39,411 bases of DNA from Gemmataceae bacterium (GTDB lineage: Bacteria; Planctomycetota; Planctomycetia; Gemmatales; Gemmataceae): assembly GCA_035546275.1 (NCBI GenBank), contig DATKHW010000362.1:1-39411 (forward strand), read 5' to 3'. A model generated the notes under the pieces. It did no database searches, was not told the DNA's origin, and was given only the letters and a program-made list of their open reading frames with translations. Position numbers and translations under genes: made by a program. Of the stretch, positions 16,346 to 39,411 are shown in pieces (positions within the stretch are counted from its first letter, which is position 1; every line of letters begins with the position of its first letter).

Positions 16346-17944
16346 TCATGCTTCGTCGGCTTCGGCGGATTGCGTGATGTGCAGCCCCAGGTCGCGGAGC
16401 TTCGCGCGCAGGGTTTGCCGGGCGATCCCCAGCAGGCGGGCCGCCTGGAACTGGTTGCCGCGGGTGAACTCCAGGACGCGCGGCAGCAAGACTCGGTCCA
16501 CCTCGCGGCGCGTTTTCGCATACAGGTCTTGAGCGTCCCGCGCCAACCGCCGGCGGATGAATGGTTCCAGGTTGAGGGCAGGCGAGCCGGGCCCGTCAGC
16601 AGCCGGAGCGCTCCGGTCGCCGACGCTCCCGGCTCGCTCCGTTGCGAGTTCGGGCAGGAAGGCCGGCAGCAGGACCGGGCCGCTGGCTTGAAGCAGGGCC
16701 TGCTTGAGCACGCTCTGCAGCTCCCGGATGTTGCCCGGCCAGGAGTAGCCGTGCAGCCGCTCCATCGCCTCCAGGGAAACCGCGCGGACCTCCCGCCCCA
16801 GCTCCCGGCTGAAGCGGCGCAGGAAGTACCGCACGAGTACGGCAAGATCGTCGCCGCGCTCGCGCAACGGCGGCAGGTGGATGGAGAAGACGCCCAACCG
16901 GTAGTACAGATCCGGCCGGAATCGCCCCTCAGCCGACCAGACCGCCAGGTCTCGGTGCGTCGCGGTGATGATCCGCACGTCGGTCCGAATGGTCTCGTTG
17001 CCGCCGAGGCGCTCGAAGGATTGTTCTTGAAGAAGCCGCAGAATCTTCGCCTGGAGCGACAGCGGCATGTCGCCGATTTCGTCCAGGAAGAGCGTGCCGC
17101 CGTGGCACTGCTCGAACTTGCCGATGCGTCGGCGGTCGGCACCGGTGAAGGCGCCCTTCTCGTGGCCGAACAGCTCGCTTTCCAGGAGGTTTTCAGGAAT
17201 GGCGGCGCAGTTGAGCGCCAGGAAGGGCGCTTTCGCCCGCGGGCCGTGGCGGTGGACCGCGCGGGCGATCAGCTCCTTGCCCGTGCCGCTCTCGCCGGTG
17301 ATCAGCACCGGCATGTCCTGGGCGGCGACGCGGCCGACGGCCTTGTATACCTCGGCCATGGCCGGGCAGGACCCGATCATGCCGGCCTCGACGCTCGCGT
17401 CCGCCTCGTTTTCCTCCGCCACGGCCGGCTGACGCATGCGCCGGGCGACGTCCAGCGCCTCGCCGACCACCCGCTGCAGCTGGGGCAAGTCGAGCGGCTG
17501 AAACAGGCAGTCGTAGGCGCCGTGCTTGATGACCTCGATAGCGGCGTCGGCCCGCCTGTGCCGGGCGACGAAAACAACCGGGACGTGGGCGTTGATGCGG
17601 CGGATTTGCTGATAGACCTCCAACCCGCACCCATCCGGCAAGCACTGGTCGAGGACGATCACGTCCGGCGAATCGCTGCGGACCTGCTCCAGTCCGAAGT
17701 CGCTGTCGCCGGCTGTCCGCACCCGGTAGACGGGCGCGGGGAACGCCTGGCGCAACTGCTGCTGCCTTTGCGTCGTTGCGTCGCCGATGAAGAGCAGGCG
17801 GCCGGCGCCGACGTCAGCCTTCTTGTCCTCAATTTCCAGAATGTGCAAATCTGGGGCGTGGCGGTTCTCTCGGTTCGCGGCCGTCTGCGGGACGCAGTAG
17901 GGCGGCCAATGGTGCGTGTTCAACTTCGCCGTCGCCTCCAACAT
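16346..17944 (-). CDS. sigma54-dependent activator (NtrC family) with degenerate receiver and about 48-aa N-terminal extension
   Basis: [23 protein letters not shown] and [26 protein letters not shown]. The receiver keeps the Asp (VIVLDQCLPD) but has LLFIGDA, VFVARH (no Thr/Ser) and CLFQPLD (Lys to Gln). Confidence 0.92.
   Translation of the reverse strand: MLEATAKLNTHHWPPYCVPQTAANRENRHAPDLHILEIEDKKADVGAGRLLFIGDATTQRQQQLRQAFPAPVYRVRTAGDSDFGLEQVRSDSPDVIVLDQCLPDGCGLEVYQQIRRINAHVPVVFVARHRRADAAIEVIKHGAYDCLFQPLDLPQLQRVVGEALDVARRMRQPAVAEENEADASVEAGMIGSCPAMAEVYKAVGRVAAQDMPVLITGESGTGKELIARAVHRHGPRAKAPFLALNCAAIPENLLESELFGHEKGAFTGADRRRIGKFEQCHGGTLFLDEIGDMPLSLQAKILRLLQEQSFERLGGNETIRTDVRIITATHRDLAVWSAEGRFRPDLYYRLGVFSIHLPPLRERGDDLAVLVRYFLRRFSRELGREVRAVSLEAMERLHGYSWPGNIRELQSVLKQALLQASGPVLLPAFLPELATERAGSVGDRSAPAADGPGSPALNLEPFIRRRLARDAQDLYAKTRREVDRVLLPRVLEFTRGNQFQAARLLGIARQTLRAKLRDLGLHITQSAEADEA
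16992..17185. repeat. 194-nt tract about 97% identical to 3255-3448
   Basis: See the partner entry at 3255-3448. Confidence 0.85.
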
Positions 17945-18120
17945 GCAATCCTCCTCTCGCGGATCATGCCCGGAAAGGCGTACCTCATTGTGCGCCGCGC
18001 TTTCACCGGATCAAACCGTCATCCGGCCTAACTTTTCCATTACCCTTCTGAGCGTGGCGGAGGGACAGGGCATCTGTTATGATCGACGCCGACGCCCCGA
18101 CCCCTCGGTCCCAACTCCTC

Positions 18121-18717
18121 ATGAGCGGCGAACCCACCACCGGCGCCGTCCAGCGCTACCTGAACGCCCTGGCCGGGGACCAGCCCGCCGAGCCGATCGT
18201 GCGGGCGCTGCTCGACCGATCTGCCCGCCGTTTGCATCTTCTGTGCGCGAATCTTCTGCACCGCAATTACGCGCGGCTGACGCTGCCGCCCTTGAACTTG
18301 CAGGCCGACGAACTGCTCAGCGCCGTGGTGGAGCGCCTGCTCAAGGCGATGCGCTCGGTCCGCCCGCAGACCGTGCGCCAGTTCTTCGCGCTGGTCAACC
18401 AGCACATGCGCTGGGAGCTGAATGACCTGGCCCGCCGCTTAGATGAACAGCCGGCAGCCATAGCGCTGCAAGAAGGGATGGCGCCGGCGCCGGACAGCAG
18501 CGGCTCCGTCCTGACTCCGGACGGCCGCCGGATGCTGGAAGCGATCGACCGCCTGCCGGAGGAGGAGCGGGAGGTTTTCGGTTTGGTGCGCGTTCAGGGC
18601 CTGACGCAGCGCGAAGCCGGCGAAGTGCTCGACGTCTCCGCCAAGACGGTGCAGCGGCGCCTGAACCGCTCGCTGTTGCTGCTGGCGAAGGAGCTGGACG
18701 ATTTGCGCCCGACCTAG
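18121..18717 (+). CDS. ECF-type RNA polymerase sigma factor (kinase-associated type)
   Basis: Region 4 LPEEEREVFGLVRVQGLTQREAGEVLDVSAKTVQRRLNRSL. The N-terminus aligns with the paralogue at 37264-37881 from MSGEPTTGAVQRYL, so I prefer ATG 18121. The track start 18079 remains possible. Confidence 0.85.
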   Translation: MSGEPTTGAVQRYLNALAGDQPAEPIVRALLDRSARRLHLLCANLLHRNYARLTLPPLNLQADELLSAVVERLLKAMRSVRPQTVRQFFALVNQHMRWELNDLARRLDEQPAAIALQEGMAPAPDSSGSVLTPDGRRMLEAIDRLPEEEREVFGLVRVQGLTQREAGEVLDVSAKTVQRRLNRSLLLLAKELDDLRPT

Positions 18718-18735
18718 AGGAGGGGCGACCCCGTC

Positions 18736-21700
18736 ATGTCCGACGATTCACGTGTAGAGGAATTGCTGGAGGAACTGCTCGACTCGGGCGGCAGCCCCGA
18801 AGAGGTCTGCCGCGCGTGCCCCGACCTGTTGCCGCAGGTCCGCGCCGGCTGGAGGCGGTTGCGCGCCCTGCATGCCCAGGTCGTCGCGTTGTTTCCCGAG
18901 ACCACCCTGCTCGACGACGTCGAACCCGATGGGGCGACGCCGCACCCGCCGCCGGCCGCGCTGCCGCGGATCCCCGGCTATGAGGTGCAGGCGGTCCTGG
19001 GCCACGGCGGCATGGGCGTCGTTTACAAGGCTTGGCACGTGCGGCTGCACCGCGCCGTCGCCCTGAAAATGCTTCTCGCCGGCCCCGGCGCCCGGCCGGA
19101 GGAGCTGGAGCGGTTCCTGCGCGAGGCCGAAGCCGTGGCCGGCCTGCGCCACCCCAACATCGTCCAAATCCACGACATCGGCGACCTGGACGGCCGGCCG
19201 TATTTCACCATGGAATTCGTTGAGGGCGGCAGCCTGGCCCGGAAGCTGGCGGGGACTCCGCAGTCGGCTCGCGAGGCCGCCGCCCTGACGGCCGCGCTGG
19301 CCGAGGCCGTCCACGCGGCCCATCAAAGCGGCATCGTCCACCGCGACCTGAAACCGGCCAACGTGCTGCTCACCGCCGACGGCACGCCCAAGATCGCCGA
19401 CTTCGGCCTGGCACGCCGGCTGGAGGGGGGCGCGGGCCTCACCCAGAGCGGCGCCGCCGTGGGGACGCCCAGCTACATGGCCCCCGAGCAGGCTCAGGGC
19501 AAAACGGGGCGGGCCGCCGACATCTACGCCCTCGGGGCGATTCTGTACGAACTGCTGACGGGCCGGCCGCCGTTCCGGGCGGAGACGGCGGTGGAGACGG
19601 TCCTGCAAGTGCTCCACCAGGAGCCGGTCCCGCCGTCGCGCCTGAACGCAAAGACGCCGCGCGACCTGGAGACGATTTGCCTGAAATGCCTCCGCAAAGA
19701 TCCGCAACGGCGTTACGCCGCCGCGGCGGCGCTGGCGGACGACCTGCGGCGGTTCCAGCGCGGCGAACCCGTCCGGGCGCGTCCCGCGAGCCTGCCGTCG
19801 CGCCTGGCCAAGTGGGCGCGCCGTCGCCCGACCCATGCGGCCATGCTCGCCGTGGGCCTCCTTTTCATCGTCGCGCTGGTCGCCGGGGGCGTGTGGCTGG
19901 CGCTGCACCAGGCGGAACGGCGCCGCTTGATCGAAGCGGACTTGAAAGATGTGGCGACTCTGCAAGAGCAGGCCCGCTGGACGGCGGCGCGGGCCGCGCT
20001 GGAACGGGCCGCGGCCCGGCTCGATGGAAGCGTCTCCGACGACCTGCGGGGACGGATCGACCAATCGCGGCGCGACCTCGACCTGGCGACCCAGCTGGAC
20101 GCCGTCCAACTGCGGCGCGAGACCCGCAGCGACCTGCCTTTCTACGACGCCCAGGCGGCCCGGGAGTACGCAGAGGCGTTCCAGAAGGCGGGGCTGGGCA
20201 AGCTCCTCGATCCGCCGGAGCGTGTGGCGGCGATGGTGAACGCATCGGCCGTGCGCAAGGCGCTCGTGGAAGCGCTGGACGACTGGTCGGTCCGCGCGAC
20301 CGACAAGGAGGAGCGGGCCTGGCTGTTGGAGGCTCTGAAGCGGGCGGACCCCGACCCGGAGGGATGGCGGGCGCGCGTCCCGGCGGCGTGGGAGGACGCC
20401 GGGACGCTGGCCGAATTGGCCCGGACCGCGCCAGTCGAGCGGCTGCCGGAGTCCATGATGCTAGCGATTGGGCGACGCTTGAGGGCTTTCCGGCGGGACG
20501 CGGCCCCGTTCTTGAGGCGGGTACAGCAGGCGCATCCCGGCGATTTCTGGCCCAATTTGATCCTCGGCGATGCGCTGCTCCAGGGGAACGCCGAGCAAGC
20601 GGCCGGCTACTACCGAGCGGCGTTAGCAAGCCGGCCGACGGCGGCGGTCGGTTACTGCGCCGTCGGCGACGCCCTGAGATACCACGACGACCTGGATGCG
20701 GCGATCGATTACTATCACAAGGCCCTCCAATTCGACCCTAATTTCGCCAGGGCTCACAACAATCTCGGCCTTTCCCTGCAAGCCCAGGACCAACTGGACG
20801 AGGCGATGGGTTGCTTCCAGAAGGCCGCCCAGCTCGACCCCGACTACGCCTGGGCCCATCTCGATCTCGGCAACCTCCTGCGAGCCAAGGGCCGGCTGGA
20901 CGAGGCCTACGATCAATTCCAGGAGGTCCTCCGCCTGGACCCGACGAACCGGGAAGTCCGAGACCCCCTGAGAAGCATCCTGGTTCGGCGGGGACGAGTG
21001 GAAGAAGTGCAGGCCGAATGGCGCAAGGCGATCGACGCCGACCCGTCTCAGCATGATACGTGGTTCGGCTACGCGGAATTCTGCCTGTTTCTTGGACAGC
21101 CAGAGGAGTACCGCCGCGTCCGCCGGGCCTTGCTCGATCGCTTCGGCGCGACCACCGACCCGTACACGGCCGAGCCGGTCGGCCGGGCCTGCCTGCTGCT
21201 GCCGGCTTCGGAGGAAGAGTTGCAGCAGGCGGCGGCCCTCGCCGACCGCGCCGTGGCCGCCAAGGGATCGACGCCGGCCTGGATTTACCGCTACTTTCTG
21301 TTCGCCAAGGGCCTCGCCGAGTATCGCCAGGGCAGGTACGACAGCGCGATCGCGCTGATGAAAGGGGAAGCGTCCCTGGTCATGGGGCCCTCCCCCCGCG
21401 TAATTGCGGCCATGGCCCAGTACCGAAACGGTCAGGAGAAGCAGGCGCGCAAGACGCTTGCGCTGGCCGTCGTCGGCTTCGATTGGAGCGCCGCCGATGC
21501 GGACAGGCGCGACATCTGGATCGCCCACATCCTCCGCCGCGAGGCCGAGGCCCTGATCCTGCCGGACCTGCCGGCGTTCCTGCGGGGAGAATATCAGCCG
21601 CGGGACGACGACGAAGGCATGGCGCTGGTAGGGGCCTGTCAATTCCAAGGCCTCGACGGCTCCGCGGCCCGCCTGTACGCCGATGCCTTCACGGCCGATC

Positions 21701-22134
21701 CGAACCTGGCCGAGGACCTGGCCGCGCAATGCCTTCGCCGCACGCAACGAAGCGGCCAAAAGCCGGGCGGCGTGCTCGAGAATCTCAACTCGGAATGCCG
21801 TTACCCCGCCGTCCGCTGCGCGGCGCTGGCCGGTTGCGGATTCGGCAAGGATGCGGCCATGCTCAGCGAAGCGGAGCGGACGCGCTGGCGCCGGCAGGCG
21901 CGCAACTGGCTGCGGGCCGACCTGGCCCTGTGGGACAAGATGCTGTCCAGCGATGCGCCGGCGGCCCGCGACCTGGCGGAGAAAATGCTGAGGCGCTGGC
22001 AGATCGATCCCGACCTGGCCGGGCTGCGCGAGCCGGGCGCTATGGACGCGTTGCCGGCGGACGAGCGAGCCGAGTGGGTCGCGCTGTGGAGAGAGGTCGG
22101 CGCCGCGCTCGATCGCGCCCACACGACCCGGTGA
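18736..22134 (+). CDS. membrane Ser/Thr protein kinase with N-terminal CxxC helical module and TPR-rich extracytoplasmic region
   Basis: Starts 18 nt after the sigma gene stop. Hanks motifs GGMGVVYKA, VALK, HRDLKPANVLL, DFGLAR, GTPSYMAPEQ. One TM helix AAMLAVGLLFIVALVAGGVWLAL. TPR-like repeats (AIDYYHKALQFDPNFARAHNNLG etc.). Confidence 0.93.
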   Translation: MSDDSRVEELLEELLDSGGSPEEVCRACPDLLPQVRAGWRRLRALHAQVVALFPETTLLDDVEPDGATPHPPPAALPRIPGYEVQAVLGHGGMGVVYKAWHVRLHRAVALKMLLAGPGARPEELERFLREAEAVAGLRHPNIVQIHDIGDLDGRPYFTMEFVEGGSLARKLAGTPQSAREAAALTAALAEAVHAAHQSGIVHRDLKPANVLLTADGTPKIADFGLARRLEGGAGLTQSGAAVGTPSYMAPEQAQGKTGRAADIYALGAILYELLTGRPPFRAETAVETVLQVLHQEPVPPSRLNAKTPRDLETICLKCLRKDPQRRYAAAAALADDLRRFQRGEPVRARPASLPSRLAKWARRRPTHAAMLAVGLLFIVALVAGGVWLALHQAERRRLIEADLKDVATLQEQARWTAARAALERAAARLDGSVSDDLRGRIDQSRRDLDLATQLDAVQLRRETRSDLPFYDAQAAREYAEAFQKAGLGKLLDPPERVAAMVNASAVRKALVEALDDWSVRATDKEERAWLLEALKRADPDPEGWRARVPAAWEDAGTLAELARTAPVERLPESMMLAIGRRLRAFRRDAAPFLRRVQQAHPGDFWPNLILGDALLQGNAEQAAGYYRAALASRPTAAVGYCAVGDALRYHDDLDAAIDYYHKALQFDPNFARAHNNLGLSLQAQDQLDEAMGCFQKAAQLDPDYAWAHLDLGNLLRAKGRLDEAYDQFQEVLRLDPTNREVRDPLRSILVRRGRVEEVQAEWRKAIDADPSQHDTWFGYAEFCLFLGQPEEYRRVRRALLDRFGATTDPYTAEPVGRACLLLPASEEELQQAAALADRAVAAKGSTPAWIYRYFLFAKGLAEYRQGRYDSAIALMKGEASLVMGPSPRVIAAMAQYRNGQEKQARKTLALAVVGFDWSAADADRRDIWIAHILRREAEALILPDLPAFLRGEYQPRDDDEGMALVGACQFQGLDGSAARLYADAFTADPNLAEDLAAQCLRRTQRSGQKPGGVLENLNSECRYPAVRCAALAGCGFGKDAAMLSEAERTRWRRQARNWLRADLALWDKMLSSDAPAARDLAEKMLRRWQIDPDLAGLREPGAMDALPADERAEWVALWREVGAALDRAHTTR

Positions 22135-22325: not shown

Positions 22326-23996
22326 TCAGCGCGTCGCGGGAACATTCTGACCGTCGCGCTCGAATTCGTCCGTCGCAGGCGCCGCCTTGTCGGCGTCGGC
22401 GTTTCGCTGCCACCAGTCTTCGGCCCGTTCCGGCGTCCATTGGCCCGCGCAGGCGCACGCGGCCAGCGCCCGGTCCAGGCTCGCCGCGTCCGGGTAGCGT
22501 CGGTCCGGGTCCTTTTCCAGGCAGCGGAGCACGACGCCCTGCAAATCGGCCGCCGCCGTTTGCTGGAATTGGGGGATAGGGGTGGGCGGTTCGTAGGCGT
22601 GGGCGTGCAGCATTTCCAGGGCGGAGGACCGGTCGAAGAGGAGCTGGCCGGTGAGCAGGAAGTAGGCCACGGCGCCGACGTTGTAGATGTCGCTCCGCGC
22701 GTCCAGCTGCGCGCGGCCCTTCGCCTGCTCTGGCGACACAAAGGCCGGCGACCCGGTCAGGGCGCCGTCCCGCGTCAGCCGGCCGTCGTCGCCCTCCAGG
22801 CCGAAGCCCTTCACCAAACCGAAATCGAGCAGCTTGGCCACGTCGTACACCTTGCCGCGCTCGCAGGCGAAGATGTTGCTCGGCTTGACGTCACGGTGGA
22901 TCAGGCCGATGCCGTGGGCCTCGCGCAGCGCCTGGCACACCTGGCGCAGCAGATGCACCGCCCTTTCCGGCGGCATCGGCCCGTGCTGCTCGACCAGCTC
23001 CTCCAGGTTCATGCCCGGCAGGTACTCCATCACGTAGTAGAACGTGCCGTCCTCCGCGTGGCCGTAGTCGAAGATCTCGACGGTGTTGGGGTGCGTCAGG
23101 GTCGCGGTCGCCCGCACCTCGCGCTCGAAGCGGAGCAACGTCCGCGGGTCGCCGGCCTGGTCGGGCCGAATCAGCTTGACGGCGCAGGGCCGGCGGAGCA
23201 TCACGTGCTCGGCCAAATAGACCGCGCCCATGCCGCCGAAGCCGACCACCCGCTTGAGCCGATACTGGCCGAGCCGCTGCGCCTCGTGCGCCTTTTGTTG
23301 CATCTCCCGGATCTTGTGCGAGCCGAACACAGCGATGGTCGCGGCCGTGCCGATCAGAATCACCGCCTCGGGAAGCGCCGACCACAAGTAGGGGGCCGCC
23401 GTCCCTTCCACCAAGCCATCCACGATCAGCAGGCCCAGCGGGACCGCCGCCAGAACGGCCACGACCGCAGCGCAGCGCCGCCCGGTGTTGGGGATGAACA
23501 CGCCGTAGAGGACGATCAGGAGGAACGAGCGCAGGATCCCGGCCATGCCGATCTGCCGATAAATCGCCGATTCGCCGCCGGGCACGATGGCGCCCCGCAG
23601 GACGCCGTCGTGGTAGGCGTCGAATTGCAGCCAGGCGAAAAAGACGGCGACCATGCCGAAAATGGTCAATTCGAGAGTGCGTAAGGTCTTCATGGACAGG
23701 AGCCGGCGACTCCACAGCAGCACGGAAACGAGCGCCATGACCGCGATTTCGCCGCCGGTGATTGAGAGTCGAAGCGGACGATGGTCGAAGGCCGGCTCCT
23801 GCAGCAGCACGTTCCGCACGAAATGCAGCGTAAACCCGACCAGGATGATCAGGATGGCCAGGCGCAGCCGGGTGCGGAGCAGGGACGTCATTTCATCCGT
23901 GAAACACGGGCCTGAATCCGAACCTTGGGCGAAGCGGCAGCGCGGCTTGCGCGACGTCTTCACGGAGTCGCCGAAGTCCACGGTCGCAACGTTCAT
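22326..23996 (-). CDS. Ser/Thr protein kinase with N-terminal polytopic membrane domain
   Basis: GGAGG 5 nt before ATG 23996 (track start 24017 is GTG). About 6 hydrophobic helices in the first 240 aa. Then GFGGMGAVYLA, AVK, HRDVKPSNIF, DFGLV, GSPAFVSPEQ. Confidence 0.9.
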   Translation of the reverse strand: MNVATVDFGDSVKTSRKPRCRFAQGSDSGPCFTDEMTSLLRTRLRLAILIILVGFTLHFVRNVLLQEPAFDHRPLRLSITGGEIAVMALVSVLLWSRRLLSMKTLRTLELTIFGMVAVFFAWLQFDAYHDGVLRGAIVPGGESAIYRQIGMAGILRSFLLIVLYGVFIPNTGRRCAAVVAVLAAVPLGLLIVDGLVEGTAAPYLWSALPEAVILIGTAATIAVFGSHKIREMQQKAHEAQRLGQYRLKRVVGFGGMGAVYLAEHVMLRRPCAVKLIRPDQAGDPRTLLRFEREVRATATLTHPNTVEIFDYGHAEDGTFYYVMEYLPGMNLEELVEQHGPMPPERAVHLLRQVCQALREAHGIGLIHRDVKPSNIFACERGKVYDVAKLLDFGLVKGFGLEGDDGRLTRDGALTGSPAFVSPEQAKGRAQLDARSDIYNVGAVAYFLLTGQLLFDRSSALEMLHAHAYEPPTPIPQFQQTAAADLQGVVLRCLEKDPDRRYPDAASLDRALAACACAGQWTPERAEDWWQRNADADKAAPATDEFERDGQNVPATR

Positions 23997-24090
23997 CGCA
24001 CCTCCATCGACAGGCACGTCAGGTTACGGAACCCCAGGGGCTTGCCCTTGAGGCGCAGCCCAGCGGCGGTTGCAGTCGCTCTTTAGTTTA

Positions 24091-24106
24091 CGCAGCGGTC
24101 GTGCCA
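24091..24106 (-). promoter_or_regulatory. candidate sigma54 promoter (TGGCAC-N5-CTGC)
   Basis: Minus strand reads TTGGCACGACCGCTGCG with exact GG-N10-GC spacing. Intergenic, about 85-95 nt upstream of the kinase start at 23996. Confidence 0.5.
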
Positions 24107-24317
24107 AAGCGCGGCGCGTCGTCGCGCTTCCCTTCCCTGATGTATCACGCAGCGACGCAAAGGCCGCTAATCGGTCGGCGCAGGCTCCGGACCCGGCATC
24201 CGGAGGTGGTAGGTTTTTGGCCGACCCGAAAGCAATTCTACCCCTATCAGGCCTGCCCGCCTGCTCGGAGCAACCCGGCGGGCGCCAAAAAGCCCAAAAA
24301 ACACAGTCTGCTAGTCG

Positions 24318-24333
24318 CGGCACAGCTGTTGCT
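24318..24333 (+). promoter_or_regulatory. candidate sigma54 promoter (CGGCAC-N5-TTGCT)
   Basis: CGGCACAGCTGTTGCTTTTTT with exact spacing, 86 nt upstream of ATG 24419. Two A-tracts (24287-24291, 24296-24301) lie just upstream. Confidence 0.55.
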
Positions 24334-24418
24334 TTTTTGCAGCGCTGAACTAGACGGGCGGCGTGATCCGCTCAATCGAACGACCCGCGGCCTGTCGCCC
24401 GATCAAACGGGAGTAGAA

Positions 24419-25522
24419 ATGTCCATCACTGTCAATGGACCGGTGCGGACCGCACCGCCGCGCCTCGCCATAGGCGGCGCGCTGGCGCGCTTCGCCCTAA
24501 TTGGCGTCATCCTCGCGGCCGTCCTGGGGATCTACGCCTATCTCGGCGGTTGGCTCACTCCGCATGAGCTGACGCCGTCGCGCTTCGTCGACGGCTTCGA
24601 GCAAGTGGCCGGCGTCCATCCTGGTTTCCGCCGCAACCATGCCAAGGGCCTCGGAGCTTCCGGGTTCTTTGACAGCAATGGAAACGGCGTACGTCTATCG
24701 AAGGCGGCCGTCTTTCGGCCGGGGCGCGTGCCCGTGATCGGCCGCTTCTCGCTGGGGGGCGGACAACCTGATGCGGCCGACGCGCCGAACGCCGTGCGCG
24801 GCCTGGGGCTGCAGTTTTCCCCGGCCGACGGCGAGCTGTGGCGAACCGCGATGATCAACCGGCCGGTATTCCCGGTCCGCACCCCCGAGGCGTTTTATGA
24901 GCAGTTGCTCGCGTCGAAACCGGACCCCAAAACGGGCAAGCCTGATCCGGCCGCCATGCCGGCGTTTCTCAAGCGCCATCCCGAATCCGTGGCGGCGAAC
25001 AAGGTCATCGAGGGCGAGCCGGTTTCCTCGGGGTTCGAGAACAGCAGGTTCTACGGCCTGAATGCGTTTCGCTTCACCAATGCGGCAGGCGAAACCATTC
25101 CGGTGCGCTGGCTGATGAGGCCGGAACTGCCGTTTGAGGCGGCCGCAGCTCCCGGAGACAAGAACTATCTCTTTGACGCGCTGATCACAGCGATGCACCG
25201 CGAACACGCATTGCGATGGCATCTTAGGGTCATCATCGGCCAGCCGGGCGACCCGACCAACGACGCCACCATCCCCTGGCCCGAGGAGCGCGAGCAGGTG
25301 GACGTGGGAACCCTGACCCTCGACCGGGTGGAGAGCGAGGAAACCAGCGCCGCGACCGACATTAACTTCGATCCCCTGGTTTTGCCCGACGGCATCGCGC
25401 CCTCGGACGACCCGCTGCTGAGCGCTCGCTCGGCGGTGTACTCCCAGTCGTACACCCGGCGGGCCGGCGAAACGAAGACGCCAAGCGCGATCACGCCGGC
25501 CGACGTGCGCAAAGGAGAATGA
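24419..25522 (+). CDS. catalase-related haem peroxidase, membrane-anchored
   Basis: GGGAG 5 nt before ATG 24419; the track extension from 24101 was rejected. TM helix FALIGVILAAVLGIYAYL. Distal-His motif FRRNHAKG. Proximal motif ARSAVY. Confidence 0.85.
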   Translation: MSITVNGPVRTAPPRLAIGGALARFALIGVILAAVLGIYAYLGGWLTPHELTPSRFVDGFEQVAGVHPGFRRNHAKGLGASGFFDSNGNGVRLSKAAVFRPGRVPVIGRFSLGGGQPDAADAPNAVRGLGLQFSPADGELWRTAMINRPVFPVRTPEAFYEQLLASKPDPKTGKPDPAAMPAFLKRHPESVAANKVIEGEPVSSGFENSRFYGLNAFRFTNAAGETIPVRWLMRPELPFEAAAAPGDKNYLFDALITAMHREHALRWHLRVIIGQPGDPTNDATIPWPEEREQVDVGTLTLDRVESEETSAATDINFDPLVLPDGIAPSDDPLLSARSAVYSQSYTRRAGETKTPSAITPADVRKGE

Positions 25523-26127
25523 CGATGTCAAACCAACGGACGCAATTCACCGTCTTGATGCGGGTGCTGCACTGGACGATGGCCGCGATGGTCCTGACCA
25601 TGCTCGGCCTCGGCGTCGCCATGGTCGCCTCGCTGGGCGACTACCACCTGCTCGTTTCGATCCACCGCCCGCTGGGCGTCGCCATCCTGGTCCTGGTCGT
25701 CGTCCGCTTCGTGGTCCGCCGCTTGAGCCCGCTTCCGCCTTTTCCGCCCACGATGTCGCGCCTGGAGCGCCTGGCGGCGGAGGCGTCCGAGTACACACTG
25801 TATGGCCTGATGACCGCGCTGCCGCTGGTCGGCTGGGGCATGTTGTCGGCGGCGCGCTACCCGATCGTCCTGTACGGGCCGCTGCAGCTGCCGTTCATCC
25901 TTCCGCAGAACCCCATGCTGTACGCCGTGCTGCGGAAGACGCATACCGTCCTCGCCTACCTGCTTTTCCTGACGTTCCTCGCCCATTTCTCAGCGATCCT
26001 ATTTCACACGCTGATCGTGCGGGACGGCATCCTGAAGCGAATGGCGCCCTGGAACATTCGGCCGCGCGAGGCCGCGGCGACCGACTCGGCCGCCGTCCAC
26101 AAACCCGATCCCATAATCGCCCAATAG
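25519..26127 (+). CDS. cytochrome b561 family protein
   Basis: ATGA overlap with the upstream stop. RVLHWTMAAMVL..HRPLGVAILVLVVVRF..H-containing 4-TM layout typical of CybB-like proteins. Confidence 0.88.
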   Translation: MTMSNQRTQFTVLMRVLHWTMAAMVLTMLGLGVAMVASLGDYHLLVSIHRPLGVAILVLVVVRFVVRRLSPLPPFPPTMSRLERLAAEASEYTLYGLMTALPLVGWGMLSAARYPIVLYGPLQLPFILPQNPMLYAVLRKTHTVLAYLLFLTFLAHFSAILFHTLIVRDGILKRMAPWNIRPREAAATDSAAVHKPDPIIAQ

Positions 26128-26130
26128 AAA

Positions 26131-26619
26131 ATGAACATGTTCAAGACGAAGAACGACCTGTCGGAAGCGACCCGCGTCAAGGCCGTCGAGCTGCTCAACG
26201 CCCGGCTGGCCGACTGCATCGACCTGCAGACTCAGACCAAGCAGGCCCACTGGAACGTGAAAGGCCCGCACTTCATCGCCCTGCACGAGCTGTTCGACAA
26301 AATCAACGAGGAGGTGGAGGACTACGTGGACCTGATCGCCGAGCGGGCAGTGCAGCTCGGCGGCGCAGCTCAGGGCACGGCCCGCATGGCGGCCAAAGCA
26401 AGCTCATTGCCCGAGTACCCGGCGACCGCGGTGGACGGCGGGAGCCACGTCGAGGCTCTTTCCTCAGCGCTGGCGGCGTTCGGCAAATCGGCCCGCAAGG
26501 CCATCGACCAATCCAACGAATTCAACGACCTGGACACGGCGGACATCTTCACCGAGATCTCGCGCGGCGTCGACAAGTGGCTGTGGTTCGTCGAGGCGCA
26601 CCTGCAGGCGGAGCGCTGA
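26131..26619 (+). CDS. dps: Dps (DNA protection during starvation) ferritin-like protein
   Basis: LNARLADCIDLQTQTKQAHWNVKGPHFIALHELFD..EDYVDLIAERAVQLGG are classic Dps ferroxidase-site motifs. Starts 4 nt after the cyt b561 stop. Confidence 0.93.
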   Translation: MNMFKTKNDLSEATRVKAVELLNARLADCIDLQTQTKQAHWNVKGPHFIALHELFDKINEEVEDYVDLIAERAVQLGGAAQGTARMAAKASSLPEYPATAVDGGSHVEALSSALAAFGKSARKAIDQSNEFNDLDTADIFTEISRGVDKWLWFVEAHLQAER

Positions 26620-26830: not shown

Positions 26831-27766
26831 TCATTGCGTCGCGGCGGCCCGTCGCCGCCGGCCGCTCAGCAGGTAAATATCCGACCGCACCGCCGTCAAC
26901 GGGTCGCCCGCCGAGTCGATCCCGTCCACCCTGGGATCCGGGTCGAAAATGATCTTCCGGCGTTCCGGGGCCAGCTCGTCCACGCGCTCCGTGACGGCCA
27001 CCGTGCCGAACTCCACCAGCGGCCGACTTTCCGGCCAGTGAGAAGTGGAGTCGGCGACCTGGTCGCCCGCCTCGGCCATTTGCACCAGCACGCGGAACCG
27101 CGCCGGCCCCCGGGCCAGGCGCTCCGACAGCTCGGCGGCGAGGAAGTCGGTCGTCTTCTTCGCCGCCTGCTCGGCCGTCAGGAACTCGGTCCCGGCTTCG
27201 GGGCGGATGCGGAACCGGCCGAATCGGCTCTGGTCGGCCGCGTTCGTGAACTTGAACGCGGTGACGGCGAAGTACGCCTGCCGGGCGTAGCTCGTCGGGA
27301 TCGGTTTCGGGGTCTCGACGAAGGCCTTCGCCGCCGGGTGAGCGGCCAGGAACGCCGCAATGGGCGGCGGGGTGGGGGCGCCCGGTCCACTCGCGGCCGC
27401 GGCCCGAAGGAATTCCAGGAACTCCTCCCCGGTCCGGGTCGGGAACCCGTTGTGCGAATGGGCGATGATGTCCGTGTGGACGTGGTCGGCCAGGTGGAAC
27501 CGGACCGCCATCGCCTGCGGGCTGGATCCCATCGGGTCGTTGTCGGCGACGGTGGGAACTCCCGCCGTCAGCGAGAAGCGCACGGTGACGGGGGTGGACG
27601 GCCGGGCGGCGTGCGGCACCCGGGTCAGTTTCGCCGCCTCGGCTGAGGGGGTGAACACGCCGGAAACCATCAGGCCCCGGGCGTGAACCGGCCGGAAGCC
27701 GGGGTGTATCCCGCCGGACAGTTTATCGAGGACGGCGAGCAGATCGACGACGAGTGCGGACGGCAT
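26831..27766 (-). CDS. catalase-related haem protein (soluble paralogue)
   Basis: FRPVHARG distal-His motif, AVRSDIY proximal motif. 311 aa. Confidence 0.85.
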   Translation of the reverse strand: MPSALVVDLLAVLDKLSGGIHPGFRPVHARGLMVSGVFTPSAEAAKLTRVPHAARPSTPVTVRFSLTAGVPTVADNDPMGSSPQAMAVRFHLADHVHTDIIAHSHNGFPTRTGEEFLEFLRAAAASGPGAPTPPPIAAFLAAHPAAKAFVETPKPIPTSYARQAYFAVTAFKFTNAADQSRFGRFRIRPEAGTEFLTAEQAAKKTTDFLAAELSERLARGPARFRVLVQMAEAGDQVADSTSHWPESRPLVEFGTVAVTERVDELAPERRKIIFDPDPRVDGIDSAGDPLTAVRSDIYLLSGRRRRAAATQ

Positions 27767-27837
27767 GTCGTGAGTCTCCGAGTAGTGGTCGAGTTAGTCC
27801 GTGTGGATGACGCTGACCTCTGGGACGCCGATCCGCC

Positions 27838-29229
27838 TCAGCGGACGGCATCGAACAAACTGTTGAGTCCCTCGGCCATCGTCGGGTGCGCGAGGATGGC
27901 GTCCCGCAAGAGCGTGCAGGGCAGCCCGCCGAGCATCGCCGTATGCACCACGGACATGACCTCCCCGGCCTCGGGGCCGATCATTGTGAAGCCGAGAATG
28001 CGGTCGCCGGCCGCCTCGACCAGGGTTTTCATGAAGCCGGCCGTCTCGCCGGTGCTCCGGGCCCGCAATACGGCGTTCATCGGCAGCTTGGCGACGCGCA
28101 CCGCAATCCCCTGTTGCCGGGCTTCTCGTTCGCTCATACCGACCCGCGCCAGCGGCGGATCGGTGTACAGGCAGTAGGGAATGAGGCGGTTGCGCGTGCT
28201 GTGCTTCCCCCCGGCCAGGTTGCCCCGGATGACCCGGAAGTCGTCCTCGGACGCGTGCGTGAACTGAGGGCTGCCGGCGCACTCGCCGATCGCCCAGACG
28301 TTGGGCGCGCTCGTTTCCAGCCGGTCGTTGACCTTGATGTAGCCTCGTGCGTCCAGCTCCACGCCGGCCGCGTCCAGCCCGATCCCGACCGTGTTGGGGG
28401 TCCGGCCCGTCGCGGCCAGGATGTCGCTGCCGGCGATGGTCTGTTCCCCTGCCGCCGTCCGCACGCGCAGACGGACGCCCTCTCCGGACCGTCCGTCCAC
28501 CTGAAGCACCTCCGCCCCAAAAAGGAATTCGATTTCTTCGGCGCTGAGAATGCGCCGGATTTCCTCCGTGACGTCCGGGTCCTCGCGGCTGAGCAGCTGC
28601 GGCCCGTGCTCGATCACGGTGACGCGGCTGCCGAAGCGACGGTACGCCTGGGCGAACTCGAGGCCGACGTACCCGCCGCCGAGGACGATGAGGTGTTCGG
28701 GCACGTGGTCGATTTCGAGCAACTCGATGTTCGTGATCGGCCGGGCCTCGGCCAGGCCGGGGATCGGGGGGATCGTGGCGCGGGTCCCAACGTTGACGAA
28801 AACGCGGTCCCCCGTCAGCACGCGCGTCCCGCCGTCGTTCAGGCGCACTTCCAGCGTCTTCGGCGCGACGAAACCCGCTGAACCCATGATCAGCTCGGCG
28901 CCGCTCTTGTGGTACAGGTCCAGGTGCAGGGCGACCAGGCCGTCCACCATTTCGCGCTTGCGCTGCCGCACGCGCACCATGTCGATCGCCGATGCGCCGG
29001 TCACCAGGCCGAACTTCGCCGCGTGGTGAACCAGATCGGCGACTTTCGCGCTCCAGATCTCGTTCTTGCTGGGGAGGCAGTTGATGTTGGGGCAGGACCC
29101 ACCGATGTAGCGTCGCTCGACGACCGCGACGCGGCGCCCGGAGCGCGCCAGATGCCAGGACAGCAACTTGCCGCCCGCCCCGCTGCCCAGCACGACGTCC
29201 TGGTACGATTCTGGCTGAGACATGCTCAT
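27838..29229 (-). CDS. FAD-dependent pyridine nucleotide-disulfide oxidoreductase (class I, CxxxxC)
   Basis: GSGAGG dinucleotide fold, redox-active GGSCPNINCLPSK, second Rossmann GGGYVGLEFA, C-terminal dimerisation region HPTMAEG. The second ATG at 29223 has better AAGGAG spacing. Confidence 0.9.
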   Translation of the reverse strand: MSMSQPESYQDVVLGSGAGGKLLSWHLARSGRRVAVVERRYIGGSCPNINCLPSKNEIWSAKVADLVHHAAKFGLVTGASAIDMVRVRQRKREMVDGLVALHLDLYHKSGAELIMGSAGFVAPKTLEVRLNDGGTRVLTGDRVFVNVGTRATIPPIPGLAEARPITNIELLEIDHVPEHLIVLGGGYVGLEFAQAYRRFGSRVTVIEHGPQLLSREDPDVTEEIRRILSAEEIEFLFGAEVLQVDGRSGEGVRLRVRTAAGEQTIAGSDILAATGRTPNTVGIGLDAAGVELDARGYIKVNDRLETSAPNVWAIGECAGSPQFTHASEDDFRVIRGNLAGGKHSTRNRLIPYCLYTDPPLARVGMSEREARQQGIAVRVAKLPMNAVLRARSTGETAGFMKTLVEAAGDRILGFTMIGPEAGEVMSVVHTAMLGGLPCTLLRDAILAHPTMAEGLNSLFDAVR

Positions 29230-29317
29230 CTCCTTGTGGGAACCTGACGAATCCGAATCGCTGATATGGTTGCGTTAGCGCCCGCCGGCCTGGGCCGGCG
29301 CGCCCCGCGTCCGTCGC

Positions 29318-30073
29318 CTACAAGCGCAACCCGCCTGAGATGTAAAGCGTTTCCCCCGTGGTCCAGGCGGATTCGGAAGACGCCAGGAACACCACGGCCG
29401 GCGCGACGTCCTGTGGCTGGCCGATCCGGCCGAGCGGAGTTTGCGCGACAGCCTGCTTTTCAAAATCACTGCCGGGGATGCCGGCGGCATGCAGCCCCTC
29501 CGTTTCGATCACCCCGGGGGCGACGGCGTTGACGCGGATCTTGCGCGGCCCTAGCTCCTGGGCCAGCGATCGCGTGATCGCATTCACGGCCGCCTTGGTG
29601 GCGCTGTACACGGAGGTGTTCGGCGGGGCTGACGCGGCGGCCACCGAGCTGATGTTGACGATGCTGCCGCCGGCGGGGCCGAATTGCTTGACCGCCTCCT
29701 GCGTCGCCAGCAGCAGCCCCAGCACGTTGAGGTTGAAATGCTTGTGAAAGTGTTCGGCGCTGACGGCCTCCAGGGGCGCAAACTCGTAGACGCCGGCGTT
29801 GTTCACCAGGATGTCGAGCCTCCCGAACGCCTTCTTCGTCTCGGCAAAGAGACGGCGAACGTCCTCGAGTTTGGACACGTCGGCCTGCACGGCGACAGCT
29901 TTTCCGCCCGCTTGCCGGATGCGATTGACGACCGCCTCCGCGCCGGTCTTGCTGCTGGCGTAGTTGACCACGACCGCCGCGCCGGCCGCCGCCAGATGCT
30001 CGGCGATCCCGGCGCCGATTCCTTTCGACGCCCCCGTGACGACGGCGACCTGCCCTTCCAGTTTGTTCGGCAT
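29318..30073 (-). CDS. short-chain dehydrogenase/reductase (FabG-like)
   Basis: VAVVTGASKGIG, NNAG, S..YSATKAAV catalytic motif. AAGGAG 7 nt before ATG 30073. Confidence 0.92.
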   Translation of the reverse strand: MPNKLEGQVAVVTGASKGIGAGIAEHLAAAGAAVVVNYASSKTGAEAVVNRIRQAGGKAVAVQADVSKLEDVRRLFAETKKAFGRLDILVNNAGVYEFAPLEAVSAEHFHKHFNLNVLGLLLATQEAVKQFGPAGGSIVNISSVAAASAPPNTSVYSATKAAVNAITRSLAQELGPRKIRVNAVAPGVIETEGLHAAGIPGSDFEKQAVAQTPLGRIGQPQDVAPAVVFLASSESAWTTGETLYISGGLRL

Positions 30074-30255
30074 CACAGAACTCCTTGGTCTTTGTTAGGG
30101 TCGTTCGGGACTGACCCGGCCGTCGCTCCTCAGCCTCGAAGGCGCGCGAGCCAGGTCCTCATCGCTGATGGTTCTAGGCGCACGAATCGCTCTCCGCTTC
30201 CAGGACCGGGTCTTGCCAGCCGTCCGGAGGGGCGAGACTCAGGCCTGCCTCGCGC

Positions 30256-30486
30256 GGCCTCCATCGTGATCTGGACGCTCTCGACATATTAGCGGTTCCA
30301 GATCGGCTCCAGGATGGCGTTGGCGAAGCGGAACTGCAACAAATTCTGCACCGGATCTTTGCCGAGGCGACGGTCGATGCGGAAGATCGACGTCTCGTCG
30401 AAGTCGCCCAGCAAGATGCGGTTGAGGGCTTGCGCCGAGGCGAGGTCTCTACCGAAGGGCTTTTCGATGATGACGCGGCCGCCGTT
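30256..30486 (-). pseudogene. zwf: glucose-6-phosphate dehydrogenase relic (central fragment only, in-frame TAA, catalytic His lost)
   Basis: [66 protein letters not shown] matches the Zwf core (EKPFG, RIDHYLGKE, LRFAN, WNR..VQIT). N- and C-terminal parts are absent. RIDHY has become RIDRR. Confidence 0.75.
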
Positions 30487-30545
30487 GCGCGGGCACACGC
30501 AGCGGGACGAGATTGACAAGCCGACGCACAGCGTCGGCCTGCCGT

Positions 30546-31049
30546 TCAAGCCTTGTGCGCCGGATCGGTCTCCGCTTTGGCGGCCGCCGGCGCCGGGCGA
30601 GGCGCGGCCGCGTGGGCCGGCGCCTTGACGAGCAGGACCGGGCAGTGGGCCTGCCGGACCACGTCCTCGGTCACGCTGCCGGTCAGCAGGTGGCTCAACC
30701 GCGTGTGCCCGTGCGTCCCCATCACGATCAGGTCGCAGCCGGACTTCTCCAGCATCTCCAGAATGTGCGCGACCTTCGGCCGTTCGGCCACGATCGCCTT
30801 GTGCTCTACCTTCACGGCCGGGTCGACCGCTGGGAGGCTCTTGAAGCGGCCCCACACGTCGGTCAGGTTCCCGCCGCTCGACGCGGTCAGGAGGGCGCCG
30901 CCCTCCGCCGCCACGGCCGGCGCGTGGGACACATGGAAGATGACGATTTCGGCCCCGGTCGCTTTCGCGAGCACCTGCGCGACCCGGAACGCCTCGTCGG
31001 CGGGGGGGGAGAAGTCGGTGGGGACCAGGATTTTGCGGATCGCGTTCAC
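30546..31049 (-). CDS. universal stress protein (UspA family)
   Basis: GAAGGAGG 5 nt before GTG 31049. [52 protein letters not shown]. Confidence 0.88.
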
Positions 31050-31080
31050 ATCAGCCTCCTTCGGGAATGGATAGGACGAC

Positions 31081-31506
31081 TCACGCTGCCGGAGCGGCCT
31101 GCCCTTCGATTTCACGAACAGAGGACAGCTTCCAGGCGACGTACCGGGTCACGAGATCGACCGTGAAGAGGTCGGGGATGGCGCCCAGCCGCCGGTCCTT
31201 TTCCAGGGCGGCAAGGTCGGCGTAGGGCATGCGCCGGCGCAGCTCGGTCATGCCCTTGTCCGTCACCCGGCCGTCGCTGACGAACTCCGGGTCGCCTTGG
31301 AATACCGATTCGGGGAACAATTCGCCGCGCGGGATCGTGAGGCCGAACTCGCGCTCCAGGCGGAACACAATGTCCAGGAAGTCGATGGACTCGGCGCCCA
31401 GGTCGTTCTGCAGGCTGGCTGACGGCGCGACCTCGTCCTCGTCCACGTTGAGCGACTCCGTCAACACTTGGGTCACTCTTGCAAACGTCGTTTCATATAC
31501 GGGCAT
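31081..31506 (-). CDS. acyl-carrier-protein-like protein with an internal insertion of about 45 aa
   Basis: GGAGG 6 nt before ATG 31506. Phosphopantetheine-site-like LQNDLGAESIDFLDIVFRLEREFG. ACP helix 4-like LFTVDLVTRYVAWKL is displaced by an insertion. 141 aa. Confidence 0.65.
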   Translation of the reverse strand: MPVYETTFARVTQVLTESLNVDEDEVAPSASLQNDLGAESIDFLDIVFRLEREFGLTIPRGELFPESVFQGDPEFVSDGRVTDKGMTELRRRMPYADLAALEKDRRLGAIPDLFTVDLVTRYVAWKLSSVREIEGQAAPAA

Positions 31507-31578: not shown

Positions 31579-31595
31579 AGCAACCGCCATGCCAA
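31579..31595 (-). promoter_or_regulatory. candidate sigma54 promoter (TGGCAT-N5-TTGCT)
   Basis: Minus strand reads TTGGCATGGCGGTTGCTTT with exact spacing. About 75-90 nt upstream of ATG 31506. Confidence 0.55.
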
Positions 31596-31838
31596 GGACG
31601 TCCGGTCGCCGTACGCGGTGGGAATTGAGCGCCGGCGCGGACCCGGCCATGCGTGGAGTGGCAGCCTTCTTTCCCGGTAGGTGCAACATCTACCAGCGCG
31701 GCGGGGCGAAAGATCGACAGCCGAGATGACCATTCTCATGGCACTTGCACCAGCTGCCCCCCACTCCGCCGTTCCAAACGCCTTCACCTCGCAGATTTTA
31801 TCTCCTTCCCGTGGTGCAGACGAACACATTAGCAGACC

Positions 31839-31854
31839 CGGCATGACCGTTGCT
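31839..31854 (+). promoter_or_regulatory. candidate sigma54 promoter (CGGCAT-N5-TTGCT)
   Basis: CGGCATGACCGTTGCTC with exact spacing. About 80 nt upstream of ATG 31933. Confidence 0.5.
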
Positions 31855-31932
31855 CCGCATGCACGCCGCAATGGTGGGACTTGCGGGTGAAGAACTCGCA
31901 TGTCGGCCCGGATCCACTTGAAGGAGAAAGCC

Positions 31933-32436
31933 ATGAAACTGCACTTCTGGGCGGCCGTGGTTGGCGTCCTGGCGATGGGCGGCGCCGCCGCGCGGGGCGA
32001 CGATGGACCGGTCACGGACGCCGATTACCTGGCGGGGGCCATCACCCACGCCGCAGCCGAGGGCCGGGCCGGCAAGCTGGCCCTGAAGCGGGCGAAGTCG
32101 GAAGAGCTTCGGCAGTTCGCCCGCAAGGCCCTCGAAGAGCAGGCGACATTCGACCCGGACCTGCAAGCCCTCGCCGTGGATCACAAGCTGGCGGTGCTGT
32201 CCAGCCAGGCGGACGGCTGGCAGCTGTCGGAATCCGTGCTGGGCGACCTGTCCGGCGAACAATTCGACCGCGAGGCTTTGAAGCTCTTCATCCGCGACCT
32301 GGAACAGTGGATCGACCTGTCGCAGCACAGCGCGAGCCGCGACGACGCGGCAGAGAGCCAGCTGGCGGCCAAGATGTTGCCGACCCTGCGGGAGCGGCTC
32401 CGGGAAGCCAAGCGGCTGCGGAAAGCTCTGCCATAG
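31933..32436 (+). CDS. secreted DUF4142-like protein
   Basis: AAGGAG before ATG 31933. Signal peptide MKLHFWAAVVGVLAMGGAAA. Two helical half-repeats with ..LRQFARKALEE.. and ..GEQFDREALKLFIRDLEQ.. resemble DUF4142. The family call is from memory. Confidence 0.65.
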   Translation: MKLHFWAAVVGVLAMGGAAARGDDGPVTDADYLAGAITHAAAEGRAGKLALKRAKSEELRQFARKALEEQATFDPDLQALAVDHKLAVLSSQADGWQLSESVLGDLSGEQFDREALKLFIRDLEQWIDLSQHSASRDDAAESQLAAKMLPTLRERLREAKRLRKALP

Positions 32437-37230: not shown

Positions 37231-37263
37231 GATGCGACTTCCCCCCCTTGGGCCGGGATCGAG

Positions 37264-37881: not shown

Positions 37882-37977
37882 GGCGACTCCGGTCGGAGCA
37901 CGACAACGGCGGGGAAATTATACCGCGTCGGGATGTTACGCCGCCACGCTTAGGAGGATGGAGCATAGATATTCCCG

Positions 37978-39411
<1,434 letters not shown>

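Follow-up and report, generated by a model that had tools for sequence, protein, structure and literature searches.

What controls a membrane Ser/Thr (Hanks) kinase gene and a catalase-related operon that diverge from one non-coding spacer in a Gemmataceae planctomycete? Both transcription units lie on a contig of 39.4 kb (DATKHW010000362.1, 39,411 nucleotides, G+C 67%; the window in the following). The kinase gene (22326-23996, minus strand) and the first operon gene (24419-25522, plus strand) are separated by 422 bp of non-coding DNA (23997-24418). An earlier note on this DNA had described a spacer of about 400 bp with back-to-back sigma-54-type promoters for the kinase and the operon. Comparative sequence evidence supports this claim, and we consider it likely that the spacer is a bidirectional sigma-54 control region, at which an NtrC-type activator would act from a shared element as part of a Gemmataceae stress regulon.

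Two outward-facing promoter motifs in the spacer

Sigma-54 promoters were recognised by a -24 GG and a -12 GC, 10 nt apart, in a context resembling YTGGCACG-N4-TTGCW. The leftward motif of the spacer, TTGGCACGACCGCTGCG (24091-24107, minus strand; GG 24104-24105, GC 24092-24093), reached a score of 12.8 with an approximate weight matrix, and the rightward motif, CGGCACAGCTGTTGCTTTT (24318-24336, plus strand; GG 24319-24320, GC 24331-24332), a score of 14.7. The earlier note had located both on the correct strands; its end of the leftward motif, 24106, is one base short, and its end of the rightward motif, 24333, is that of the 16-nt core. The exact GG-N10-GC spacing that it reported is confirmed by the GG and GC positions, and each motif shows two mismatches to the 16-nt consensus (TTGGCACG-ACCG-CTGCG and CGGCACA-GCTG-TTGCT). 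Both motifs are situated in non-coding DNA and oriented towards genes whose start codons have Shine-Dalgarno sequences. Leftwards, transcription is predicted to start at about 24080, so that the kinase ATG at 23996 (GGAGGT ahead of the start) would follow a leader of about 84 nt. Rightwards, the predicted start at about 24344 would leave about 75 nt to the ATG of the catalase-related gene at 24419 (GGGAG ahead of the start).

The sole two matches to GGCAC-N6-TGC in the window are both found in the spacer and face outwards. Scoring the window with the approximate matrix against background, as the earlier note had suggested, gave four sites with a score of at least 12 (2.8 expected) and three with a score of at least 14 (0.56 expected). 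The top four scores form two outward-facing intergenic pairs, 24091/24318 and 31579/31839. With roughly 8% of all strand-specific positions falling into the stretch 20-250 nt ahead of a start codon, the probability that four of four top sites would be so placed by chance is in the order of 1e-4 to 1e-5, a rough estimate made post hoc. In number, the motifs do not exceed chance, but their placement is not random and the elements are conserved in relatives.

Conservation of the promoters in related contigs

Loci of related contigs are given L-numbers here; the close Gemmataceae-type contigs share 66-84% protein identity with the window. Near-identical -24/-12 elements were detected ahead of the orthologous kinase gene in L081, L082, L165, L166 and L168. 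In each of the seven kinase-orthologue loci for which DNA was at hand, a sigma-54 motif stands ahead of the kinase gene or heads its operon. Six of these are clear (L081 911-926, L082 1956-1971, L164 2242-2257, L165 1358-1373, L166 3276-3291 and L168 2641-2656), and the seventh is a candidate motif in L167 (106-121). The leftward promoter is kept as GTTTGGCAC-N5-YTGCGTTA in L081, L165, L166, L084, L103 and L082. When seven promoters of this 'kinase-type' were aligned (alignment A2), the invariant columns were almost only TTGGCA and TGC, while the 5-nt spacer and the flanks varied, which is the signature to be expected of a -24/-12 promoter.

The operons that contain catalase-related genes are likewise preceded by sigma-54-type promoters in L081, L082, L084 and L103. 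In L081 (protein identity 80%), GTTTGGCACGACCCCTGCGG is found some 98 nt ahead of the gene of the kinase orthologue, and CGGCACGGCTGTTGCTTTC, near-identical to the rightward promoter of the window, heads an operon for an aldo-keto reductase (AKR), an SDR, the catalase-related protein and cytochrome b561. L082 has an outward-facing pair, TTGGCACGGCTGCTGCT and CTGGCACGGCCCTTGCT, ahead of two operons. The leftward operon encodes an NAD-binding dehydrogenase, a 186-aa protein and the kinase, and the rightward one, headed by TGGCACGGCCCTTGCT, a ferritin, two cupins, DsrE, the catalase-related protein and cytochrome b561. A promoter of the same type stands before the genes of Dps, the catalase-related protein and cytochrome b561 in L084 and L103. 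Kinase loci that were fetched independently have similar arrangements: GTTTGGCACGGTCCGTGCGTTA heads AKR, DJ-1, dehydrogenase and kinase genes in L165, GTTTGGCACGGGTCCTGCGTTA heads the genes of a cupin-like protein and the kinase in L166, where further motifs face a divergent ferritin gene, and L164 and L168 resemble them.

Of the 63 metagenome loci whose upstream sequence could be used, eight (a few near-duplicates among them) carry a motif scoring at least 12 on the coding strand within 300 nt upstream of the catalase-related gene, compared to 0.73 expected; the opposite strand of the same loci has none. Across 79 loci from many phyla no enrichment was seen, with one motif upstream of the catalase-related gene and 0.87 expected. 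Sigma-54 control as a general trait of the catalase-related/cytochrome b561 module was therefore ruled out, and such control would be lineage-specific.

This conservation bears on the possibility that the two spacer motifs are chance resemblances to the consensus in GC-rich DNA, the plus-strand one being a weak hairpin with a T-run and thus terminator-like. The motif count of the window equals the chance expectation, and a terminator scan flags GCGGCACAGCTGTTGC+TTTTTTG at 24317-24339. However, at least six independent contigs keep the elements at the orthologous places while the spacers vary, a pattern that largely refutes the chance reading and leads us to regard it as very improbable. The terminator was rejected because it would have nothing to terminate, with no end of a plus-strand gene ahead of 24317, because the stem is weak, with just three G-C pairs plus G-T wobbles, and because the T-run is not conserved (TTTC in L081, TCGG in L082). 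A second weak hairpin with a T-run, at 24062-24080 and antisense to the kinase leader, was judged incidental, as was the one at 24317-24339.

The sites could also be genuine sigma-54 sites of a conditional or auxiliary kind, with the main or basal expression arising from undetected sigma-70 or extracytoplasmic function (ECF)-type promoters in the spacer. Dual sigma-A and sigma-54 promoters are found at ahpC of Myxococcus xanthus, in the PexR system treated below (PMC12754779), and two ECF sigma/kinase pairs are encoded in the window. A scan of the spacer for a sigma-70-like hexamer pair found none, which is weak evidence since the sigma-70 consensus of planctomycetes is poorly known. Furthermore, apart from the enhancer-like element described below, the promoter-proximal conserved blocks are the -24/-12 elements themselves. 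We consider such a division of labour unlikely.

A search for Rfam families in the spacer gave none at E<=1. For the kinase-type leader, a conserved 5' hairpin was also considered (GGCG...CGCC, the version of the window being AGCG...CGCT) and given up, as RNAalifold yielded no consensus structure.

A candidate enhancer between the promoters

Enhancers of the NtrC type usually comprise at least two sites of dyad symmetry that lie 60-250 bp ahead of a promoter and are conserved along with it. Using nhmmer and alignment, we found a conserved block of about 50 nt with a 35-bp core, for which the consensus is GGCAG-GTTTC-TWGCC-GGCCG-GATAA-CTTTT-CTTCC. In the spacer, it occurs as tandem dyads, GGTAG-GTTTT-TGGCC-GACCC-GAAAG-CAATT-CTACC, at 24208-24242 (no strand assigned), within a hidden Markov model (HMM) match that reaches 24193-24263. 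This copy is about 100 nt away from the leftward and about 77 nt from the rightward -24 element. A second copy in the window, GGCAG-N25-CTACC (31660-31694, no strand assigned), is located between a second promoter pair. Ten copies were aligned, all between or upstream of sigma-54 promoters, and in no copy does the element overlap a promoter.

HMMs built from subsets of the copies and then run on loci outside the training set matched L165 (E 2e-10), L166 (2e-7), L164 (0.006), L168 (7e-4) and L051 (0.02). Every one of these matches lies 60-250 bp from a sigma-54 motif, the background of such motifs being about 0.04 per kb and strand. The tandem dyads are clean in L168 (GGTAG-N5-TAACC-N5-GGTAG-N5-CTACC), and L051 reads GGCAG-N5-TGTCC-N5-GGCAA-N5-CTGCC; both thus contain two 15-bp dyads with centres about 20 bp apart. 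Two dyads so spaced are the layout expected for two HTH_8 activator dimers on one helix face, as at NtrC-family enhancers. We propose 24208-24242 as a candidate binding site of one or more NtrC-type activators.

Alternatively, the element might serve as operator for a different regulator, for example a redox sensor of the OxyR, Rrf2 or MarR type or a nucleoid or bending protein. The activator would then bind at other places, perhaps the inverted repeats of the earlier note. The right half of the element (GATAACTTTTCTTCC) is indeed weakly dyadic in most copies, and the inverted repeats AAGCGCG-N9-CGCGCTT (24107-24129) and CTCCGGA-N7-TCCGGAG (24185-24205) do occur in the spacer. Against this, the element is found 60-250 bp from promoters and never over them, always together with sigma-54 motifs and also at the loci outside the training set, the 15-bp tandem dyads of L168 and L051 have the layout usual for dimers of NtrC-family HTH_8 proteins, and the inverted repeats are absent from L081 and L082. 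We therefore find this explanation improbable and retain the element as a candidate activator site. The A-tracts in which the earlier note saw support for looping also exist (24287-24291 and 24296-24301) and also have no counterpart in L081 and L082. As activator or bending sites both repeats and A-tracts were discarded, the conserved element being the one at 24208-24242.

The element core TGGCAGGTTTCTAGCC has GG-N10-GC spacing and was rejected as a third sigma-54 promoter. It is read as a site for protein dimers because it scores only about 10, the window copies have no -12 context, and conservation continues 20 nt further in the form of tandem dyads. Inspection of the element by eye for the IHF consensus WATCAANNNNTTR found none.

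Activators and a presumed sensor

Three paralogous NtrC-type activators (enhancer-binding proteins, EBP) are encoded in the window, all of them with GAFTGA and Walker A motifs. EBP1 (2621-4063, minus strand), a response regulator with REC, AAA+ (with GAFTGA) and HTH_8 domains, is the best candidate activator. EBP2 is encoded at 16346-17944 (minus strand) and EBP3 at 37969-39411 (plus strand), where it is cut by the end of the window. EBP1 and EBP2 have receiver (Response_reg) N-termini, and the N-terminal region of EBP3 aligns to the receiver region of the activator in L087. The helix-turn-helix (HTH) domain of EBP2 is near-identical to that of EBP1, including the recognition helices (GNQ[YF]...), which suggests that the two proteins read the same DNA sites.

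Divergent from EBP1 lies the gene of a hybrid histidine kinase of 1406 aa (4209-8429, plus strand; DUF4118-PAS/GAF-HisKA-HATPase-REC-Hpt), the presumed sensor. Directly downstream of EBP1, a 288-aa protein without Pfam match is encoded (1556-2422, minus strand). It is probably part of the same module, because an 88% identical protein is found at the same position in L082 (6867-7730). Together the three genes are orthologous (87-88%) to a cluster directly downstream of the catalase-related operon of L082. EBP1 orthologues adjoin a catalase-like operon or gene in L082 (87%), L087 (82%) and L004 (73%). Next to the kinase gene, an EBP1-type gene is found in L168 and at the P0124 locus. In L082 and L168, the genes of an EBP and of an orthologous DUF4118-PAS kinase diverge. 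Because EBP1-type genes adjoin these operons or the kinase in relatives, a response regulator of the EBP1 type is presumably the activator, and its paralogues may share the sites. The activator genes of L082 (7921-9377) and L168 (5722-7102) are split by frameshifts into two frames or two called genes, which are probably assembly errors rather than signs of pseudogenes.

A second divergent pair of putative promoters

The second element copy is flanked by the two highest matrix scores in the window. The leftward motif TGGCATGGCGGTTGCT (31579-31594, minus strand; score 19.1, the best in the window) faces an acyl carrier protein (ACP)-like gene (31081-31506) and a universal stress protein (USP) gene (30546-31115). 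The rightward motif CGGCATGACCGTTGCT (31839-31854, plus strand; score 15.5) faces a DUF4142 gene (open reading frame (ORF) 31900-32436, likely ATG 31933). An equivalent promoter is present ahead of a PP-binding gene in L164. This second module possibly also drives the SDR, disulphide oxidoreductase and second catalase-related genes, which follow downstream on the same strand; between the USP and SDR genes there is a gap of 469 nt with no called gene (30077-30545).

The second catalase-related gene (311 aa, without the N-terminal hydrophobic segment) is convergent to the Dps gene in the region 26831-30076 (minus strand). Upstream of it, on the same strand, are the genes of the pyridine-nucleotide disulphide oxidoreductase and the SDR. 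In L081 and L084, too, the catalase-related operon comes with an orthologue of this oxidoreductase (78-80%).

Proposed mechanism and regulon

Our best reading of these data is a two-component, sigma-54-dependent oxidative/electrophile stress regulon in Gemmataceae-like planctomycetes. Sigma-54 RNA polymerase would form closed complexes at the promoter of the kinase gene (24091-24107, minus strand) and at that of the catalase-related operon (24318-24336, plus strand), while dimers of an NtrC-type activator, EBP1 and possibly EBP2 and EBP3, would occupy the tandem dyads at 24208-24242. Once the PAS/GAF hybrid histidine kinase (4209-8429) has phosphorylated it, the activator would oligomerise, loop to both promoters and open them by ATP hydrolysis. 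The leftward output would be the polytopic-membrane Hanks kinase and the rightward output a membrane-anchored catalase-related peroxidase, cytochrome b561 and Dps. The module appears to be repeated at 31.58-31.85 kb, with the ACP-like and USP genes leftwards and DUF4142 rightwards, and in relatives it may drive genes for aldo-keto reductase, SDR, DJ-1/PfpI, cupin, DsrE, ferritin and NAD-binding dehydrogenase. This predicted content points to peroxide, electrophile or redox stress. The sequences show the motifs, how these are conserved and placed with respect to genes, the conserved element and the genes around the activator, whereas sigma-54 binding, the identity of the activator, the signal and co-transcription are parts of the model that we infer.

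Several observations weigh against this model. The number of GGCAC-N6-TGC matches is at chance level (two in the window, 2.9 expected), the 16-nt consensus with at most two mismatches is matched nine times in the window with 6.5 expected, and the weight matrix was only an approximation to the published consensus, so that absolute scores are rough. Two loci from Gemmataceae metagenome-assembled genomes (MAGs; L001 and L003) and most distant loci are without a motif upstream of the catalase-related gene. The two element copies of the window are the most divergent of the ten, and although they are the only two window matches to GGYAG-N25-CTRCC (24208-24242 and 31660-31694), this pattern was derived post hoc from those very copies and the count is not independent evidence. 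EBP1 is 20 kb and EBP2 6 kb away from the spacer, and neither EBP2 nor EBP3 can be separated from EBP1 by the DNA-binding helices. Finally, rpoN was not found in the window; its presence in the genome is presumed because the window encodes three activators.

A bolder version, which we put forward tentatively and with some doubt, is that of a dedicated sigma-54 redox/electrophile regulon in Gemmataceae-like planctomycetes, in which several sensor kinases converge on one tandem-dyad enhancer type through paralogous NtrC-type response regulators whose recognition helices are near-identical, and of which the most conserved output is the polytopic-membrane Hanks kinase rather than a detoxifying enzyme. 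If this were true, two-component/sigma-54 signalling would lead straight into eukaryote-like phospho-signalling, from which the neighbouring ECF-sigma/kinase pairs could be fed. The mechanism as such is textbook knowledge, and the value of the analysis therefore lies in regulon discovery and not in a new principle. For a phylum in which gene regulation is almost unexplored experimentally, it yields two putative promoter pairs, a 35-bp candidate enhancer with defined half-sites, a candidate activator/sensor pair and a list of potentially co-regulated genes, comprising the catalase-related peroxidase and cytochrome b561, Dps, reductases, DJ-1, USP and the conserved membrane Ser/Thr kinase. It also offers a first regulatory clue for the very widespread, uncharacterised catalase-related/cytochrome b561 pair.

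Comparison with known systems

Sigma-54 control of genes of the Dps and catalase type had been called unusual in the earlier note. This is overstated, because the bacterial enhancer-binding protein (bEBP) PexR of M. xanthus activates the sigma-54 promoters of katB-ankB and of ahpCD with dps downstream (Bastida-Martinez et al., NAR 2025, PMC12754779), a precedent for such control of catalase, ahpC and dps. PexR acts from tandem dyad upstream sites in a divergent regulatory region, senses H2O2 directly by an N-terminal metal-binding GAF domain, and has homologues reported in unclassified Planctomycetota (PMC12754779). The system proposed here, predicted from sequence, resembles it in the tandem dyad sites and the divergent region, and its putative sigma-54 targets, among them the catalase-related protein and Dps, may likewise serve peroxide defence. 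In contrast to PexR, the activators of the window are associated with a receiver domain and a partner hybrid histidine kinase and not with an H2O2-sensing GAF domain. The PexR site CACCG-n6-CGGTG has no match with up to two mismatches at 22683-25663, whereas the half-site of the window element is GGYAG. Moreover, while PexR targets AhpC and KatB, the genes concerned here encode the 367-aa catalase-related haem protein, cytochrome b561, Dps, the Hanks kinase and reductases. A PexR-type system was rejected in view of the missing site and the receiver-type activators. Our reading would extend the PexR-type finding, sigma-54-dependent peroxide defence, to a phosphorelay-controlled activator architecture and to another phylum.

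Divergent promoters that share a sigma-54 enhancer are known from zraP/zraSR of Escherichia coli with ZraR and from nifHDK/nifJ of Klebsiella with NifA; glnAp2 with NtrC is a further NtrC-type system. The window shares with such systems an activator of the REC-AAA+(GAFTGA)-HTH_8 type with a cognate histidine kinase, at least two predicted dimer sites about 80-200 bp upstream, and one intergenic enhancer-like element between two outward-facing -24/-12 promoters. Unlike in the classical cases, the putative regulon combines peroxide/electrophile defence with a eukaryote-like kinase, belongs to another phylum, and has activator genes that are not adjacent to the spacer. In addition, one type of enhancer may be shared by the three paralogous activators, whose recognition helices are near-identical.

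In planctomycetes, Studholme and Dixon reportedly described in 2004 the sigma-54 activators and promoters of Rhodopirellula baltica, a marine member of the Pirellulaceae, in silico. We know of no shared enhancer or kinase target from this prediction work. A further study, in which that work is cited, mentions a predicted sigma-54 promoter upstream of the stress-induced thioredoxin gene RB10378 of the same organism (PMC2754498). The likeness is that of a planctomycete that has rpoN and more than one activator, and for which sigma-54 control is predicted at a redox gene induced by stress.

In the standard arrangement, catalase and Dps genes are under OxyR or PerR and are transcribed from sigma-70 promoters, at which or beside which the redox-sensing regulator binds. 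The output genes are alike (Dps and the haem peroxidase/catalase family), but the spacer contains conserved -24/-12 elements and a distant enhancer-like element, and no sigma-70-like promoter was seen in it. A literature search found no paper that connects Gemmataceae, or the catalase-related/cytochrome b561 pair, with sigma-54.

Sigma-54-type motifs in other lineages

In a lineage of lower G+C content (L092/L093, L096, L099, L102, L123, L133, L127 and L118), the catalase-related gene is preceded by strong sigma-54 motifs, of which TCTGGCACATGCGTTGCT is an example, together with upstream repeats of a different type (GTCGRCATTTCGAC-like). In L118, an activator gene and the gene of a MEDS-domain (MEDS-HisKA) histidine kinase are situated directly upstream. 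Because this group combines such motifs with different repeats, it seems that more than one lineage has gained or retained sigma-54 control of the catalase-related/cytochrome b561 pair, using different activators. In Bryobacterales/Solibacterales loci (L068, L073, L077, L070 and L052), a conserved motif, CGGC-N8-ATTGCATAA, occurs about 170-230 nt upstream of the catalase-related gene. With its GG-N10-GC spacing and a weak -24 half, it might be either a sigma-54 promoter in degenerate form or a site of an unrelated kind.

Genes flanking the spacer

The identities that the earlier note had given to the kinase and to the catalase-like, cytochrome b561 and Dps proteins were borne out by Pfam (Pkinase, Catalase, cytochrome b561, Ferritin-like) and, for Dps, by NCBIfam (204.6 bits, cut-off 114). 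The kinase has 556 aa, with the Pkinase domain at residues 245-501 behind a polytopic, hydrophobic, multi-helix N-terminal domain of about 240 aa. Its orthologues are full-length with 66-82% identity, some of them from named Gemmataceae. The catalase-related haem protein of 367 aa has an N-terminal hydrophobic segment, and its best solved relative (3e4w/3e4y) is a catalase-related protein of 320 aa and not a true catalase. Its gene overlaps by 4 nt with that of the cytochrome b561 family membrane protein (25519-26127, plus strand), which is followed after 3 nt by the Dps (miniferritin) gene (26131-26619, plus strand; Pfam Ferritin(-like)). The pair of catalase-like and cytochrome b561 genes was present in nearly all of 160 related loci and occurs across many phyla, and its nearest named relatives are from MAGs of Gemmataceae, Pirellulales and Isosphaeraceae. 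By these relatives and those of the kinase, too, the host is very probably a Gemmataceae-like planctomycete.

An ECF-type sigma gene followed by a large Ser/Thr kinase gene occurs twice in the window, at 18079-22134 (plus strand) and 34912-37881 (minus strand), one of the kinases having TPR repeats. This pairing is typical of planctomycetes, and a link to the membrane kinase under putative sigma-54 control is speculative. Just past the stress-gene cluster, an ORF with transposase-type HTH domains (HTH_32/HTH_28/HTH_29; 33192-33761, plus strand) hints at the remnant of an insertion sequence.

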